Assembly (NCBI GenBank): GCA_963779415.1
Contig: CAVZYA010000001.1
Location: forward strand, 1,472,001-1,536,000
Direction: 5' to 3'
DNA: 64,000 bases
DNA from: an uncultured Acidobacteriota bacterium
Lineage (GTDB): Bacteria; Acidobacteriota; Thermoanaerobaculia; UBA5066
How positions within the stretch are numbered: position 1 is the stretch's first letter; each line of letters opens with the position of its first letter. Of this stretch, positions 56,499 to 62,580 are shown piece after piece. The position numbers were made by a program, and so were the translations under genes. The notes below the pieces were generated by a model. The model was not told the DNA's origin. It did not search any database and worked only from the letters and a program-made list of their open reading frames with translations.

Positions 56499-56831
56499 AT
56501 GAAAATGAAGTCGAAGCTGTTCGTCGCCATCGCTCTCGTGGCCGCTCTCGGGCTCGCCTCCGCGGCTTTCGCCGCGGACGTGACGCTCACCGGGAATGTC
56601 GCCTGCGCCAAATGCACCCTGAAGAAGGCCGACGCCAAGGAGTGCCAGGACGTTCTCGTCGTCGCCGGAGCGAACGGCGCCACGACCGAGTACTACATCG
56701 TCAAGAACGCCGTCCTGAAGGATTTCGGCCACACGTGCACGGGCGAGAAGGCGGTCACGGTCACCGGCACCGTCTCCGAGAAGGACGGGAAGAAGTGGAT
56801 CACCCCGTCCAGGATGAACGCCAAGAGCTGA
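56499..56831 (+). CDS. Small secreted Cys-containing OB-fold-like protein (DUF6370-like)
   Basis: AAGGGAG SD; signal peptide AFA/AD; CAKC, C, HTC; VTVTGTV-x-EKDGKKWI. Confidence 0.7.
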   Translation: MKMKSKLFVAIALVAALGLASAAFAADVTLTGNVACAKCTLKKADAKECQDVLVVAGANGATTEYYIVKNAVLKDFGHTCTGEKAVTVTGTVSEKDGKKWITPSRMNAKS

Positions 56832-56834
56832 CGA

Positions 56835-58352
56835 TCAGACCGTCCGCATGCTCCCCGTCCGGAGGAGGTTCCGGTGCCAGCCGAAGGCCTCCTCGAGGAG
56901 GTGCGGGGTGTGCTTGCCGGGAGAGGTGAGAAGAGCGCGGCGGAAGTAGTCCCGGAGCGCCGGCCGGTAGTCGGGGTGGGCGCAGTTTTCGATGATCCGC
57001 TCGGCCCGCTGCTTGGGCGCGAGGCCCCGGAGATCCGCGAGGCCCTGCTCGGTCACGATGACGTGGACGTCGTGCTCCGTGTGGTCGACGTGGGTGACCA
57101 TCGGAATGATGCAGGAGACCGTCCCCTTCTTGGCCGTCGAGGGGGTCATGAAGAAGGAGATGTAGGCGTTCCGGGCGAAGTCGCCGGAGCCCCCGATCCC
57201 GTTCATGATCGCGGTCCCGTTCACGTGGGTCGAGTTGACGTTCCCGTAGATGTCGGCCTCGATCATCCCGTTCATGGAAAGGCAGCCGAGTCGCCGGATC
57301 AGCTCGGGGTGGTTCGAGATCTCCTGCGGGCGGAGGATGATGGCGCTCCGGTACCGGTCCATCTGCGCGCTGAGCTCGTCGTTCTTCTGCGGGCTGAGCG
57401 AGAAGGCCGTGGCCGAGGCGACGAGCATCTTCCCGGAGCGGATCAGCTCCAGCATCCCGTCCTGAAGCACCTCCGTATAGGAGGTCAGGTGGTCGAACGG
57501 CCCTTCCTGGAGGCCGAAGAGGACGGCGTTCGCGATGTTCCCGACGCCGGACTGGATCGGCAGCAGCTCGTGCGGAAGGCGCCCCTTCTTCACCTCGCTC
57601 CCGAGGAACTCCAGGATGTGGCCGGCGATCCGCCGCGACGCGTCGTCCGGAAGCGCGAACGGCGTGTTCCGGTCGGGCGCGTTGGTCTCGACGATGGCGA
57701 CGATCTTCTCCTGCGGGCAGTGGAAGTACGGCGTCCCGATCCGGTCCGACGGGTGGATGAGCGGGATCGGCCTCCGGTGGGGCGGGAGCGCGAACCCCTC
57801 GTAGATGTCGTGCATCCCCTCGAGCTTCTCGGACTGCGCGGAGTTGACCTCCAGGATCACCTTGTCGGCGTAGTCGAGCCAGACCTTGTTGTTGCCGACC
57901 GAGGACGACGGGATCAGGTCGCCGTTCGGAAGGATCCCCGTCACCTCGACGACCGCGAGGTCGAGCTTGCCGAGAAAGCCGGAGCGGACGAAGGCCCCGA
58001 CGTGGGAGAGGTGGATGTCGATGTACTCCATCTCTCCCGCGTTGATCTTCTTCCGGCAGACCGGGTCCGACTGGTACGGAAGCCGGAGCTCGACGCCGTC
58101 CACCATCGCGAGGGCGCCGTCCAGCTCGGGGGCCGTGGACGCTCCCGTCCAGATGCTGATCCGGAACTTCTCGCCGCGCAGGTTGGCGTCCATGATCCGC
58201 TTGGCCAGCGCCAGCGGAACCGCCTTCGGGTATCCGGCGCCCGTGAAACCGCTCATCCCGACGGTGACCCCCGCCGGGATCAGGGCCGCGGCTTCCTCGG
58301 CCGTCACGACCTTGTCGAGCAGGGCCTTGTTCAGAATCCGTGCGCCATCCAT
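56835..58352 (-). CDS. Acetyl-CoA hydrolase / succinyl-CoA:acetate CoA-transferase (AarC/Ach1 family)
   Basis: SGFTGAGYPK, TGAS, DIHLS, QSGVGNIANAV, YTEVLQD, NGIGGSGDF, HVDHTEHD. Confidence 0.93.
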   Translation of the reverse strand: MDGARILNKALLDKVVTAEEAAALIPAGVTVGMSGFTGAGYPKAVPLALAKRIMDANLRGEKFRISIWTGASTAPELDGALAMVDGVELRLPYQSDPVCRKKINAGEMEYIDIHLSHVGAFVRSGFLGKLDLAVVEVTGILPNGDLIPSSSVGNNKVWLDYADKVILEVNSAQSEKLEGMHDIYEGFALPPHRRPIPLIHPSDRIGTPYFHCPQEKIVAIVETNAPDRNTPFALPDDASRRIAGHILEFLGSEVKKGRLPHELLPIQSGVGNIANAVLFGLQEGPFDHLTSYTEVLQDGMLELIRSGKMLVASATAFSLSPQKNDELSAQMDRYRSAIILRPQEISNHPELIRRLGCLSMNGMIEADIYGNVNSTHVNGTAIMNGIGGSGDFARNAYISFFMTPSTAKKGTVSCIIPMVTHVDHTEHDVHVIVTEQGLADLRGLAPKQRAERIIENCAHPDYRPALRDYFRRALLTSPGKHTPHLLEEAFGWHRNLLRTGSMRTV

Positions 58353-58537
58353 CGCTCTTCTCCCTTCCGTCTCCCCGGGACCGCGGGGGCTGGAGGCGGA
58401 GCTTACGTCCCTCGGGGAGAAACCGTGCCGGCTGAAACGACGAGGCGCGCGGACCGTGGGATCGGGTGGACGTTTCAGCAGACCTGGCCCCGGCTTTTGG
58501 AAATGGGATCGAGCCTTCCTCACTTGAAGGTACGATT

Positions 58538-58570
58538 GCCTGTCTGAATTCGACCCCCGAAAAGGTACTT
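58538..58570 (+). promoter_or_regulatory. Putative ECF promoter, copy 1 (upstream of the sigma gene)
   Basis: GCCTGTCTGAA (58538-58548)...ACCCCCG...ACTT (58567-58570), 5 nt before the ATG; repeated at 60519-60551. Confidence 0.65.
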
Positions 58571-58575
58571 AGTTC

Positions 58576-59091
58576 ATGGATGTCGTTCCCGAGCCGCCGA
58601 AGGCCAGCGTAGAGGTGGCCGAGGCTCTCATGGCCGACCGCGAGCGGCGTCGCCGGCTCTGCGCGTATGCCCGGGTCAGGTTCGGGATCGACATGGAGGA
58701 CGCGGAGGACGTGCTGCAGGAGACGGCGATGGACGTGATGCGGGCGGTCGGCCCGATCCTCCGTCCGGAGGGGTTCGTCTTTCAGGTCTTTCACGCCAAA
58801 TGCTGCCGGCATCTGCGCGGAAGGCCGGCCCGGCGGGCCGTCGTGGCTCTGGCGGACGCTCACGGCGCCGTGCTCGCGCAATCGCCGGTCGGCCCCGGGT
58901 CAGAAGAGATTCTGGCGCTCCAGCAAGGACTGTCACGGATCTCGGCCAAATGTCGGCAGCTACTCCGGGCGCATTACCTCGAGGGGAAGAGCCTCCGGGA
59001 AACCGCGGACGAGATGTCCGTGGCCGGAAGCGGCGTCTGGAACCTCATCAACCGGTGCTTGCGGAGACTGAAGCAATGTCTGCAGCCCTGA
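58576..59091 (+). CDS. ECF family RNA polymerase sigma factor
   Basis: 171 aa; region 2 DAEDVLQE; region 4 CRQLL...YLEGKSLRETADEM...INRCLRRL. Confidence 0.88.
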   Translation: MDVVPEPPKASVEVAEALMADRERRRRLCAYARVRFGIDMEDAEDVLQETAMDVMRAVGPILRPEGFVFQVFHAKCCRHLRGRPARRAVVALADAHGAVLAQSPVGPGSEEILALQQGLSRISAKCRQLLRAHYLEGKSLRETADEMSVAGSGVWNLINRCLRRLKQCLQP

Positions 59092-60503
59092 ACCACCTCG
59101 ACGATTGCACCCTTCTGCGCCACGTCGCCAGGGACCTGAGCGACTTCGAGGAGAGGGCGGCGCGGCGACACCTCCTTTCGTGCGACGTCTGCCGGAAGAA
59201 TCTAGAGAAGATCGAGGAACTCGATCACCTCCTCCGGGAAGCGGGTCCCGAGCTGTTCGGGGAAACGGAAATGGAGGGGCTGCCTTCCGGCGACCCCTTT
59301 TGCCTCCGGCCCGTACCTCGTGCACTGACGAAGCCGGCCGCCGCCGCCCAAGGCCGGGCGCGGGCGACCGAGTGTCTCGCCGCGGCGAAGGAGGCCTCCC
59401 GGAGAAAGAACTCGCTTCTCTCCTGCCGGGACGCGGGCGAGAAGGTTCTTCGGAACGCCTTCGATGGGTTGCGACTTTCCGAGCCGACAGACCGGTACAC
59501 CCTCGGTTATGCGCTCGAGGAGGCGGTTTCGCGGATGGTCGAAGCGCCAGCCCTCTGGCTCCGGTTCGCCGAGGCTGCCGTCTCCCGGCTGGCCGCGGAG
59601 CCGAAGGGCCGCCGATCGCCCTCGGTGGCCGATTCGGCCTACCCCCTCGCCGACCTCGTCGGCCGTGCGCACCTCCTGGCCGGCATCGCCCGGAACTGGA
59701 CCGGGGAGTTCGAGAGGGGTGGGCGCGACCTTCTCCTCGCCTACCGGGCCTTTGCAAGGGGAACCGCCTCCGAGGTCGAGCTGGCGCGCGTCGAGCTGGC
59801 CGAGGCCACGCGCCGGTCGTTCGTCGAGCGGGCGCCCGAGGGGCTGATCCTGGCCTCGCGGGCCGCGCAGACGTTCTCCGACTTCGGGATCGCGGACGAG
59901 GAGGCGCGGGCCCTGGCTGTGAAGGGGCTGGCGCTCTCGCGCGATGGACGCGGCGAAGAGGCCCTTCTCGCCTACCGGGAGGCGCTGCCCGCCTTCGAGC
60001 GACTCGGCCTCTGGAACGCCTACGTCTCGACGCTGCAAAACGTCGGGGCCACCCTGATGCACCTCGGCCGCCTCGCCGAGGCCCGGCGCGAGTACGCCCG
60101 GGCTCTCAGGAACGTCTCGCGCACCGAGCGTCCCGCCGTCCACGCCTTCATCCGGCGGAACCTCGCCCGGACGCTCTTCGAGGCCGGGAAATTCGCCCAG
60201 GCGGCCCTTGGGTTCGGTTCCGCCACGTCTCTCTTCGAACAGCAGGGGGCGACCGCCGACGCCCTCCTGACGCTCCTCTACCAGATAGAGTCCTTCGCCC
60301 GCGCCGGGGCCGGCGTGAAGGCGAGGTCCCTGATGGCCGGCTTTGAGCGGCGCGTCGGGGAGCTGGGCGTCCTGGACGCTTCGACCCTGAAGGAGCTCGC
60401 CGCCGCCCTGTCGGGCCGCAATCCGGATCTCGCCTCTCTCGTCCGCCTGCGCGACGGGGTCGAGGAGACTCTGCGAGATCGCCTCGAGAGGTCCGCCGGC
60501 TAG
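59076..60503 (+). CDS. Zinc-binding anti-sigma (ZAS/zf-HC2) domain fused to TPR-like repeats, no TM segment
   Basis: ATG 59076 overlaps the sigma 3' end; H...HLLSCDVC; Ala/Leu-rich TPR-like helices (GRGEEALLAYREA, LGRLAEARREYARA, GKFAQAA). Confidence 0.8.
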   Translation: MSAALNHLDDCTLLRHVARDLSDFEERAARRHLLSCDVCRKNLEKIEELDHLLREAGPELFGETEMEGLPSGDPFCLRPVPRALTKPAAAAQGRARATECLAAAKEASRRKNSLLSCRDAGEKVLRNAFDGLRLSEPTDRYTLGYALEEAVSRMVEAPALWLRFAEAAVSRLAAEPKGRRSPSVADSAYPLADLVGRAHLLAGIARNWTGEFERGGRDLLLAYRAFARGTASEVELARVELAEATRRSFVERAPEGLILASRAAQTFSDFGIADEEARALAVKGLALSRDGRGEEALLAYREALPAFERLGLWNAYVSTLQNVGATLMHLGRLAEARREYARALRNVSRTERPAVHAFIRRNLARTLFEAGKFAQAALGFGSATSLFEQQGATADALLTLLYQIESFARAGAGVKARSLMAGFERRVGELGVLDASTLKELAAALSGRNPDLASLVRLRDGVEETLRDRLERSAG

Positions 60504-60518
60504 AAAAAGAATCCACCC

Positions 60519-60551
60519 GCCTGTCTGAAAACACCCCCGGACCGGCCACTT
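60519..60551 (+). promoter_or_regulatory. Putative ECF promoter, copy 2 (upstream of the peptide gene)
   Basis: GCCTGTCTGAA (60519-60529)...ACCCCCG...ACTT (60548-60551); same 18-nt spacing as copy 1. Confidence 0.65.
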
Positions 60552-60630
60552 TACGGAATGGAAGACGTCCGTAGAGCGCTCTCACCCGGCTTCCACGATT
60601 TCCCGGGAGCGGGAAATCAAGGAGGAGATA

Positions 60631-60909
60631 GTGAGAACACGTCCGGCCCTGCTGCTTTCATGCGCTCTTTTTCTGGCGCCTTCGGCCGCCCTCTACGCCG
60701 CTGACGCCCCCCGGCCCGTCCCTCCGGCGGTAACGGCCCCCAAGCCGGCCATCGGCGGCATCCTTCTGGACTTCGGCCAGTGGCTGAGGGATCGAGCCAG
60801 GGACCTGGGCAACCCCTTCGGGGCCCTGAGCAAGACGACCAGTCCGACCGCCCCCAAGCCTGTCCCTCTGGGGGATTGCGTCGATCGGTCGCACTGCCCG
60901 ATCGGATGA
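60631..60909 (+). CDS. Small secreted peptide precursor (92 aa) with Cys-pair C-terminus
   Basis: AAGGAGGAG SD before GTG; Sec signal peptide ending ALYA; Pro-rich linkers; ends GDCVDRSHCPIG. Confidence 0.75.
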   Translation: MRTRPALLLSCALFLAPSAALYAADAPRPVPPAVTAPKPAIGGILLDFGQWLRDRARDLGNPFGALSKTTSPTAPKPVPLGDCVDRSHCPIG

Positions 60910-60942
60910 GGGTCCCGGCACCTGAATGAGACGAATCGGTCT

Positions 60943-62580
60943 GTGAAAGGCGACACCCGGATTCCCCCCGGCGCCGAGGAGGAGGGGGGCTGCCAGGCCG
61001 CAGCGCACAGCCCCCCGCCCCCGGGCGAATCTCCGACCCGGCCCGACAGCGCCACCCGCTTCCAGGCCCTCGTGAGCGGCGGGCTGGACGCTTTCTTCGT
61101 CTTCCGCAGCGTGCGCGACGAGAAGGGACGGATCGTCGACTTCGAGCTGTTCGACCTGAACAGACGAGGCGAGGAGCGCCTCGGCTTGACGCGGAACCAG
61201 CTCGTCTCGTCGCGCCTGCGCGAGATCCTGCCGGCGTTCCCTCCCGGCTTTCAGGAGAAGTGCCTCCGCGTGGCCGCCTCCGGCGAGATGCTGGAGGAGG
61301 AGGTCGCCCTCACCTCCAGCGGGCCCCAGGCGTCGTGGCTTCAGCTTCAGGTGGTCCGGATGGAGGACGGGGTCGGCGTGTCCCTGCGCGACATCAGCGA
61401 GCGAAAGCGGCTGGAGCGGCAGCTTCTCCACTCACAGAAAATGGAGGCCGTGGGCCGGCTGGCCGGCGGCGTCGCCCACGACTTCAACAACCTTCTGACG
61501 ACGATCCTCGGCTACAGCGAGCTGATGCTGATCAAGCTGCCCGAGTCGAGCCCGGCGCGCGCCGACGTCGAGGAGATCCTGAAGGCCGGCCAGCGGGCCG
61601 TGGGCCTCACCCGCCAGCTCCTTGCCTTCAGCCGCAAGCAGGTCGTCGAGCCGAAGGTCGTCAACCTGAACGCCGTCATCGAGGAGGCCGCCAAGATGCT
61701 GCGCCGCCTCATCGGCGAGGACGTCGACCTCGCGACGATTCTCGATCTCTCGCTCGGGACCGTCCGGGTCGATCCGGGCCAGATGGAACAGGTCCTGATG
61801 AACCTGGCCGTCAACAGCCGCGACGCCATGCCACGGGGCGGCCGGCTCACGCTGGAGACCTGGAACGTCACCATCGACGCCTCGGCCTCGCGCCTTCACT
61901 TCGGCGCCCCGCCGGGGGCCTACGTCCTTCTGGCCGTCAGCGACACCGGGACGGGGATGGACGTCGAGACCCGCTCCCACCTCTTCGAGCCCTTCTACAC
62001 GACCAAGGAGAAAGGGAAGGGGACGGGGCTGGGCCTGGCCACCGTCTACGGCATCGTCAAGCAGAGCGACGGCTACATCTTCGTCTACAGCGAGCCGGGT
62101 AAGGGGACGACCTTCAAGATCTACCTGCCGCGCGTGGAAGGCGTCGGGACGGACGCCGCCGCCGCCGTCCCGGCCTCGGCCGTGGCCGACGGAAAGGAGA
62201 CCCTCCTCCTCGTCGAGGACGAGGAAGCGGTCCGCCGCCTCATGCACCGCAGCCTCAGGGAACGCGGCTACAACGTCCTCGACGCACCGAGCGGCGAGGC
62301 CGCCCTCGCCGTCGCCACCTCCCACCCCGGGCCGATCGACCTCCTCATCACCGACGTCGTCCTCACCGGCGTCTCGGGCAAGAGCCTGGCCACGCTCCTC
62401 CTCACCTCTCGCCCCAAACTGAAGCTCCTCTTCATCTCCGGCTACACCGACGACACCGTCGTCCACCACGGCGTCCTCGCCAAGGAAGAGGCCTTCCTCC
62501 AGAAGCCCTTCACCCCCGACGCCCTCGCCCGAAGGGTCCGGGAGGTGCTGGATGCGAAACCGGCCGGAGCAGCCGGATGA
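60943..62580 (+). CDS. Cytoplasmic PAS hybrid histidine kinase / receiver
   Basis: [23 protein letters not shown]-box, NSRDAM, DTGTGM, FYTTK, GTGLGL; receiver VEDE, ITDVVL, SGY, KPF. Confidence 0.93.

Follow-up and report, generated by a model that had tools for sequence, protein, structure and literature searches.

A 64,000-nucleotide stretch of DNA from an uncultured Acidobacteriota bacterium (contig CAVZYA010000001.1 of assembly GCA_963779415.1; hereafter the window) was found to carry a real, conserved extracytoplasmic function (ECF) sigma factor module whose sensor is of a new architecture and which includes a micropeptide gene dedicated to it. As had been predicted, three co-oriented open reading frames (ORFs) lie between window positions 58576 and 60909 (Table 1). 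They code for an ECF sigma factor, for a soluble anti-sigma factor whose gene overlaps the sigma gene, and for a polypeptide of 92 residues with a signal peptide. The anti-sigma factor combines a zinc-binding anti-sigma (ZAS) domain with a superhelix of tetratricopeptide repeats (TPR). Gene order, domain composition and the promoter motif in front of the small ORF are conserved among related loci, and selection acts on the small ORF at the peptide level. From these comparisons of sequences we tentatively read the module as a three-part circuit, in which the C-terminal peptide, which certain lineages would secrete and others would keep in the cytoplasm, would be the ligand of the TPR sensor and would feed back on the release of the sigma factor. 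The confidence that we place in this reading is somewhat short of even.

Occurrence of the module

Orthologous loci were collected as 49 distinct rows (L numbers). Five were dropped, namely L024 (truncated match), L027 and L029 (paralogues), and L010/L046 and L047 (a second sigma gene after the anti-sigma gene, then the contig end), leaving 44 determinable loci. The loci are relatives and hence do not represent independent samples. In the original prediction the circuit stood or fell with the presence of a small ORF at homologous loci. Such an ORF followed the anti-sigma gene in 42 of the 44 determinable loci, and the loci carrying it spanned both major clades of the anti-sigma factor. Three of the small ORFs were recognised by eye (L008, which is frameshifted, L025 and L057). 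The genomes of L015/L078 (G037) and L030 (G042) are flagged as unpublished and no conclusion rests on them; L072 and L030 are possibly one contig, and the 19-aa form of L072 is known from its contig alone. The short form of L015 was also found in a separate record, L052.

Full-length orthologues of the anti-sigma factor, with 36-71% identity, were present in two families, f1 and f2, of the order to which the window belongs, one order of Thermoanaerobaculia. Among 301 evenly sampled genomes of the phylum six matched the anti-sigma factor at E<=1e-40, and all six belonged to f1 or f2. A scan of 1.84 billion representative sequences yielded 117 proteins at E<=1e-30, of which approximately 45 were full length. 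Within the window's genus the distribution was patchy, with a close orthologue only in the genomes G000 and G006.

Several variants of the locus were seen. The sigma/anti-sigma gene pair is tandemly duplicated at L010/L046 and L054, with the second sigma gene directly after the first anti-sigma gene; at L054 there is a single small ORF, located after the second pair. At L033 the place of the small ORF is taken by an 80-aa ORF (L033:4069-4311, + strand), which by eye looks like a phage baseplate/spike (gp5-like) protein. The metagenome-assembled genome containing L033 is labelled Acidithiobacillales, yet the locus groups with the window's genus. The genome of the window has a paralogous pair outside the window, at G000:C2:1289204-1292193, in which a sigma-like ORF of 235 aa precedes the gene for a protein of 765 aa. 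The 765-aa protein has the same ZAS start, the linker motif ADPFARRP and a longer TPR region, and is 37% identical over residues 6-387. A pattern search at this pair revealed no P-[IV]-P mini-ORF.

The sigma factor and the anti-sigma factor

The first gene codes for a protein of ECF build, containing sigma-2 and sigma-4 domains only, and its 171 residues fall within the ECF size range (~170-200 aa). It scored 50.3 bits with the TIGR02937 sigma70-ECF model (cut-off 42.9). The region 4 models were above their cut-offs (Sigma70_r4_2, 26.5 bits, cut-off 25.7), and Sigma70_r2, with 23.2 bits, was slightly below its cut-off of 24. None of the NCBIfam subfamily models scored above cut-off, the best being TIGR02989 with 48 bits against 124.55. 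The sigma and anti-sigma genes of the window overlap by 16 nt, and in the related loci the sigma ORF was found upstream of the anti-sigma gene wherever the contig extended that far.

The anti-sigma factor consists of a ZAS domain (residues 1-60), a GDPFxxRP linker motif (residues 72-79) and the TPR superhelix (residues 89-474). The earlier claim that the protein is soluble was borne out by its highest 19-residue Kyte-Doolittle mean of 0.99, at which no membrane segment is expected. Its HxxxCxxC sequence is the motif of class I zinc-binding anti-sigma factors, also as claimed: H7 and H32-x3-C36-x2-C39 align with H6, H31, C35 and C38 of ChrR. These four residues were invariant or almost so in alignments of 16 and 50 sequences. 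A profile built from 16 orthologues detected ChrR (E 8.5e-5), RslA (E 4e-4), DdvA (E 9e-4) and RsiW (E 2e-3), and the Pfam zf-HC2 model did not match the anti-sigma factor at E<=0.1. We propose that the ZAS domain would hold the ECF sigma factor.

The Pfam models TPR_12 and TPR_2 matched residues 277-390. Among the residues conserved in the TPR domain are E240, E243, R246, R247, R337, R338, E339, R360, E405 and R409. In the AlphaFold2 (AF2) model, which had a mean predicted confidence (pLDDT) of 93.4, the ZAS helices span residues 10-60 and about nine helix pairs follow the linker; the conserved GDPFxxRP block is confidently placed (pLDDT 94). When the TPR model was searched with Foldseek, the best match was LGN/Pins (E 6e-6, TM-score on the query, TMq, 0.50), a peptide-bound superhelix. 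It was followed by the Rap-Phr complexes 4gyo, 8rsv, 6t46 and 4i9c (TMq 0.38-0.42 for Rap) and then by KLC1 with a cargo peptide. The sequence profile of the anti-sigma factor marginally reached NprR (E 0.005) and Rap (E 0.017), and a search of a protein atlas returned generic TPR clusters only. The modelled fold makes a peptide a plausible ligand of the TPR domain.

The small ORF and its conserved C-terminus

The product of the small ORF in the window starts with a signal peptide (residues ~1-24); an amphipathic helix at 44-59 and a linker rich in Pro come next, and the C-terminal sequence is CVDRSHCPIG (82-92). Its hydrophobic stretch covers residues 6-24, with a 19-residue Kyte-Doolittle mean (KD19) of 1.91. 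The protein had no Pfam or NCBIfam match, and modelled alone it was mostly disordered (pLDDT 67) with helices at 4-22 and 44-59. A lipoprotein reading was considered as well, and was rejected because the Cys at residue 11 is not conserved among the relatives. Peptides closely related to that of the window differ in the length of the inter-cysteine loop and retain DR-x-HCPIG.

The products of the 42 small ORFs fell into three forms. Long forms, found at 22 loci, comprise 75-115 aa; behind the signal peptide they have an amphipathic helix (LD[FL]xRWLxRRL or RLWKRL) and a stretch rich in Pro, and they terminate in the conserved end. Short forms, found at 19 loci, comprise 7-19 aa, for example MNGPIPN, MIGPIPQ, MPNGPIPS and MNSLNGPIPQ, and lack a signal peptide. 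The remaining locus (L055:4025-4174, + strand) encodes 49 aa in which four tandem LHGPIPS units precede an unrelated tail; such repeated units resemble multi-copy peptide precursors. The small ORF had been described as a secreted propeptide. In form, this description fits the 22 loci with a signal peptide; it fails for the other 20 (19 short forms and the 49-aa repeat form).

The only conserved part is the C-terminal end [H/N]-x-P-[I/V]-[P/G], 5-6 residues in all, which is reminiscent of RRNPP propeptides. Among 34 distinct ORFs the first position of this core is occupied by His (16), Asn (10), Ile (4) or Tyr (2), the second by Gly (16), Cys (10) and others, the third always by Pro (34), the fourth by Ile (22), Val (11) or Leu (1) and the fifth by Pro (22), Gly (11) or Thr (1). 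The core is followed by the stop codon or by one further residue. The invariant Pro is encoded by CCG in 21, CCC in 9, CCA in 2 and CCT in 2 of the 34 ORFs, and eight codons are used at the Ile/Val position. Since all four Pro codons and eight Ile/Val codons are in use, selection acts on the peptide.

A large protein collection groups the long forms into 30 clusters. Those few with a source name go by 'hypothetical', and a Pfam domain is present in only one. The ORFs of 7-19 aa and the leader described below are missed by standard annotation, and the long forms are annotated merely as hypothetical proteins.

A quick tree of 35 anti-sigma factors split into two clades, f1 and f2. Clade f1 contains solely long forms with a Cys pair, plus both loci lacking the ORF. 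Clade f2 splits three ways, into a group of long forms and two groups of short forms. Since long forms that are homologous, with signal peptide and helix, occur on both sides of the tree, export is the probable ancestral state; the short forms probably arose by loss of all but the C-terminal end. The part serving export was probably lost while the hexapeptide was kept; the hexapeptide is therefore most likely the active part, acting at a site that a cytoplasmic product can reach. The TPR anti-sigma factor is the sole conserved cytoplasmic partner, and from this we infer feedback; it is our main argument for it.

Promoters

Two promoter-like sites were located in the window, site 1 before the sigma gene and site 2 before the small ORF. 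Both contain the bipartite motif GCCTGTCTGAA-N4/5-CCCCCG that had been noted before the first and third genes, at 58538 and 60519. The two matches compare with 0.01 expected in shuffled sequences, and the strict motif occurs at these two sites only in the whole genome of 4,359,815 bases. An ACTT sequence stands at an identical offset in both copies. We presume that the sigma factor of the module would read the shared motif. A loosened promoter scan detected one extra site in the genome (G000:C2:376882, - strand, TGTCCGAA-N17-CACTCTA), located ~150 nt before an AraC-like ORF, which is likely a chance match.

In agreement with the prediction of an ECF-type promoter, a TGTC-N2-AA ... CACTT-like site was found at a fixed distance before every small ORF. 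A rigid regular expression recovered it in 19 of 34 loci and the remainder were recognised by eye. For the sigma gene the regular expression was too rigid (it missed site 1 of the window), and a test of local similarity against control windows was used. The site before the sigma gene was similar to site 2 beyond all controls in three of 10 f1 loci, the window included, and in none of 17 f2 loci. By eye, a similar site ending 3-5 nt before the sigma ATG was recognised in eight f1 loci, and TAGAAT-like sites were seen instead before f2 sigma genes (12 loci). Autoregulation of the sigma gene, another element of the original prediction, is thus implied for the window's family only. Since the f2 sigma genes have TAGAAT-like sites instead, it is the small ORF that is the conserved target. 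In the window the sigma ATG follows site 1 by 4 nt, which suggests that the sigma mRNA is leaderless.

The leader of the small ORF

The distance from promoter to start codon of the small ORFs is ~70 nt, and these leaders share an almost invariant GAGCGCTC core. A pyrimidine stretch complementary to the Shine-Dalgarno (SD) sequence (anti-SD) is predicted to pair with one of two partners, the SD or the 5' GGAAG/GGCGG stretch, and a hairpin of locus-specific sequence lies just 5' of the SD.

When 33 leaders were aligned with MAFFT, RNAalifold found no consensus structure; this alignment was out of structural register. In a subgroup of eight leaders RNAalifold predicted the SD and the start codon to be paired. 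An alignment of 15 leaders fitted to the model, which therefore leans towards it, had 89.7% of the cells able to pair, as compared to 84.1% in shuffled sequences (none of 500 as high) and 33-52% with slid partners. In the variable hairpin (helix 4) four of five pairs were changed on both sides. The pairing probability of the SD was 0.77 against 0.60 in shuffled sequences, a modest difference, and exceeded 0.8 in 18 of 34 leaders. A search with the leader model R1 gave one match per genome, directly 3' of the anti-sigma gene, in six of 61 genomes. R1 was built from one subgroup and is biased to it: it gave no match in G000 in the genome scan, and the window's own leader scored E 0.13. No Rfam 15 family was detected over positions 58300-61100, the lone match, to P35, being at chance level (E 2.2) and located within the anti-sigma gene.

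Neighbouring genes

The genes 3' of the small ORF differ among the loci and are often convergent; they include an S46 peptidase, an antiporter, a patatin-like protein and others. A leader-peptide reading of the small ORF was rejected because of this variability. A strong hairpin follows the ORF in 11 of 17 short forms (a GC hairpin) and in six of 17 long forms. Since a strong GC hairpin comes after 11 of 17 short forms, the ORF stands alone.

In the window a gene for a cytoplasmic hybrid histidine kinase starts 34 nt 3' of the small ORF, with no terminator-like hairpin between the two, and may possibly be co-transcribed with it. Related kinases, 59-65% identical in the kinase core, follow the small ORF at L051, L059 and L060. 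The kinase is a recurrent accessory gene outside the conserved module.

At L034, L037 and L062 a convergent peptidase gene (S46 dipeptidyl-peptidase-like by eye) on the opposite strand ends near the small ORF; this neighbour is probably specific to the lineage of one subclade. At L063 a stretch resembling the 3' end of a tRNA or tmRNA, with the T-arm-like sequence GGTCGCCAGTTCGATCCTGGC, lies ~50 nt after the mini-ORF (L063:4120-4160, + strand). Elsewhere in the window, positions 56499-56831 (+ strand) encode a secreted DUF6370 protein (E 5.8e-8) of 110 aa that contains a CAKC motif, flanked by malate synthase-like and acetyl-CoA hydrolase/transferase-like genes, both on the opposite strand.

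Table 1. Features of the module and of the adjoining gene in the window
Feature	Position	Strand	Remarks
Promoter-like site 1, before the sigma gene	58538..58572	+	TGTCTGAA 58541-58548; TACTTAG 58566-58572
ECF (group IV) sigma factor, 171 aa	58576..59091	+	Sigma70_r4_2, Sigma70_r4, Sigma70_r2, TIGR02937
Soluble anti-sigma factor, 475 aa	59076..60503	+	ChrR-like ZAS domain, GDPFxxRP linker, TPR superhelix
Promoter-like site 2, before the small ORF	60519..60553	+	TGTCTGAA 60522-60529; CACTTTA 60547-60553
Structured 5' leader	60558..60630	+	GGAAG 60560-60564; palindrome AGAGCGCTCT 60573-60582; anti-SD CTTCC 60590-60594
Hairpin of the leader	60599-60616	+	TTTCCCG/CGGGAAA; window sequence
SD sequence of the leader	60620-60625	+	AGGAGG; window sequence
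Small ORF, 92 aa	60631..60909	+	GTG start after AGGAGG; signal peptide, helix, Pro-rich linker, conserved end
Conserved C-terminal motif	60874..60906	+	C-x5-C loop ending H-C-P-I-G; sole part in common with the 7-19-aa ORFs
Cytoplasmic hybrid histidine kinase	60943..62580	+	PAS-HisKA-HATPase-REC

Proposed mechanism and alternative explanations

The observations can be combined into the following scheme. The cytoplasmic, ChrR-like ZAS domain would hold the sigma factor, and the GDPFxxRP linker would join it to the TPR superhelix of ~390 residues, which would serve as the sensor. Once freed, the sigma factor would transcribe the adjacent small gene, its one conserved target, from the TGTC-N2-AA / CACTT-type promoter and, in the window's family only, also its own operon, apparently as a leaderless mRNA. 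The [H/N]-x-P-[I/V]-[P/G] peptide would be the ligand of the TPR domain and would feed back, with either sign, on sigma release. In the window's lineage the peptide would derive from a Sec-exported 92-aa precursor with a two-cysteine loop, which would need processing and re-import in the manner of RRNPP peptides. In the sister lineages the ORF of 7-19 aa would be translated directly in the cytoplasm, giving a cell-autonomous loop. Translation might be gated by the structured leader, which is able to pair the SD. The original prediction had proposed a quorum-sensing-like feedback loop, which is supported in part only: since 20 of 42 loci have no signal peptide, secretion, and with it quorum sensing, cannot be the conserved mechanism.

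A fuller version of the scheme can be formulated. In it the TPR domain of a ZAS anti-sigma factor would be the receptor for a ribosomally made hexapeptide induced by its own ECF sigma factor, a new switch-like leader RNA would gate translation, and the peptide would have changed, from lineage to lineage, between two forms, one secreted, disulfide-looped and serving population sensing and the other a cytoplasmic one of 7-10 aa acting as a cell-autonomous switch. TPR-peptide signalling would then have a sigma factor for its output and occur in a phylum of diderms. Taken with all its parts this version is less likely than not.

Several observations weigh against a peptide ligand feeding back on the anti-sigma factor. 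In the f1 peptides a signal peptide is combined with a conserved pair of Cys, features that suit an extracytoplasmic life, and an exported peptide would require import across two membranes. The peptide motif is conserved, and is not diversified into specificity types as in RRNPP systems. The type of peptide tracks the phylogeny, and a co-variation of receptor and peptide is thus inseparable from descent. The likeness of the TPR domain to Rap and LGN is generic (TM ~0.4-0.5, 13-16% identity), and in the structural model the intramolecular GDPFxxRP segment may already fill a binding surface. There are also loci without the peptide. The closest relative (L002/L033, 71% identity) has the baseplate-like ORF in place of the small ORF, and the promoter motif was not found there; L044, one of two copies in its genome, also lacks the small ORF. 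Five other genomes of the window's genus gave no small-ORF match at E below 0.1.

As an alternative, the peptide may be an output only. The TPR domain would then sense some other cytoplasmic signal, and the peptide would be a dedicated regulon product with no feedback on the anti-sigma factor. Its target would be extracytoplasmic in the long-form lineages; in the short-form lineages the peptide would use another export route or act inside the cell. The ECF promoter before the small ORF, present at all loci that have the ORF, is expected in this case, and the long forms have the signal peptide and conserved Cys pair that are usual in stable peptides of the periplasm or the cell exterior. ChrR offers a precedent, since the C-terminal domain of this ZAS anti-sigma factor senses a signal unrelated to the products of the regulon. 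However, an output role leaves two facts unexplained. The peptide gene and the TPR anti-sigma gene have remained adjacent across the order, at 36-49% identity, while all other neighbours changed, and a secreted product could give way to a cytoplasmic one of 7 aa with the same C-terminus. We regard an output role as possible, at a confidence of about a third, and retain the peptide as a ligand of the TPR sensor as our working model.

The conservation of the leader raises the question of whether the RNA is the effector. The ~150-nt sigma-dependent transcript, made up of the structured leader, the mini-ORF and a hairpin, could be a regulatory or dual-function small RNA, with the peptide being secondary. 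The invariant core of the leader and the pairing kept in its hairpin despite sequence change (four of five pairs in helix 4) are in line with this, as are the short transcription unit and the hairpin at its end in many loci. Pos19, in the part of its description available, offers a precedent (PMC5036791). But the synonymous codon turnover at the invariant motif shows selection at the protein level, the arrangement of anti-SD, SD and start codon resembles an element controlling translation in cis, and the long forms are ordinary protein genes. An RNA effector is therefore improbable.

Less probable still is a regulatory leader or ribosome-arrest peptide, whose Pro-containing end would bring the ribosome to a halt on or close to the stop codon, thereby controlling the downstream genes, the long forms being secretion monitors similar to SecM, VemP or MifM. 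The conserved C-terminal Pro motif does abut the stop codon, and in the long forms a spacer of ~60 residues separates the signal peptide from the motif. Moreover, the related hybrid kinase gene comes next in the window and at L059/L060 and L051, with no hairpin in between in the window and at L059/L060. On the other hand, there is no conservation of the genes that come next, which often are convergent, a strong hairpin stands directly after 11 of 17 short forms, and no Sec or YidC component was found among the downstream genes at the loci examined. The motif matches no arrest motif known to us.

The least probable explanation is a metal or redox module, in which the ZAS motif would be a sensor of thiol or zinc stress and the output a metal-binding C-x-n-H-C peptide of the periplasm: it accords with the H/C zinc ligands of the anti-sigma factor and the Cys-(x3-8)-His-Cys end of the f1 peptides, but the short forms and the f2 long forms have no cysteines and often no His (NGPIPN, IIPIPI, DYGPVP), and the ChrR-type ligand set (H,H,C,C) is not known to be of the redox-switch type.

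ECF sigma/anti-sigma pairs are among the commonest signalling devices of bacteria, but the signals to which soluble anti-sigma factors respond have seldom been established. In the present case, comparative genomics provides a concrete candidate for a ligand, a conserved hexapeptide, which in some genomes is encoded by an ORF of 7 codons, among the shortest conserved ORFs that can be annotated. The circuit is compact and can be rebuilt in E. coli. To our knowledge, TPR-peptide signalling has so far been described in Firmicutes and their phages. Binding of the peptide to the TPR domain would extend this type of signalling to Acidobacteria and to the control of sigma factors; it would also mean that a quorum-type loop can collapse to a cell-autonomous one.

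Comparison with known systems

The combination of parts had been put forward as undescribed. No account of it was found in the literature searched on ECF and anti-sigma factors, TPR proteins, RRNPP systems, micropeptides and Thermoanaerobaculia, although the supplements of the ECF classification, which were not covered, could list it. The closest counterpart on the side of the anti-sigma factor is the Sigma-E/ChrR pair of Rhodobacter sphaeroides, which likewise has a soluble two-domain anti-sigma factor, the same H/H/C/C ligand spacing and an anti-sigma gene overlapping the sigma gene. The sensor of the module, however, is a TPR superhelix of ~390 residues and that of ChrR is a cupin; furthermore, the conserved regulon member of the module is the adjacent micropeptide gene.

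TPR domains have been reported in ECF regulation in ECF42, as a C-terminal extension of the sigma factor, and in ECF267, where the anti-sigma factor is FecR-like (PMC7826278). In the module the fusion partner of the TPR domain is neither the sigma factor nor a membrane protein of FecR type, but a soluble ZAS anti-sigma domain. In the available sections of the same source, no peptide partner is described for either group (PMC7826278). Pos19 of Rhodobacter, according to the accessible part of the report, is an RpoE/ChrR-dependent small coding RNA, a short transcript with a small ORF (PMC5036791). Like the small ORF of the module it is a direct target of an ECF sigma factor controlled by a ZAS protein. 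As far as that part of the report goes, Pos19 differs in that it is neither located beside the sigma operon nor tied to a TPR domain, and its ORF of ~150 nt is unrelated.

The best structural match, the TPR domain of LGN/Pins, is an eight-repeat superhelix that takes up extended peptides in its channel (from NuMA, Inscuteable and Frmpd). LGN is auto-inhibited by an intramolecular motif (4jhr, according to its title), which recalls the GDPFxxRP linker of the module. LGN is a eukaryotic polarity protein, however, and the likeness is an analogy of fold only, with 15% identity.

A survey with RRNPP_Detector, in the part accessible, does not mention sigma factors or Acidobacteria (PMC10075063). The module and the RRNPP systems (Rap-Phr, NprR-NprX, PlcR-PapR, AimR-AimP) have in common a cytoplasmic TPR protein encoded beside a small gene, conserved and presumably active C-terminal residues (5-7) of its product and, at 22 of the module's loci, a Sec signal peptide. 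They differ in the output domain, which in the module is an anti-sigma domain and not a helix-turn-helix domain or a phosphatase, and the similarity to NprR and Rap is marginal. The module has a diderm Acidobacterium as its host, an export signal is missing at 20 of 42 loci, and the peptide motif is conserved where that of the RRNPP systems is diversified.

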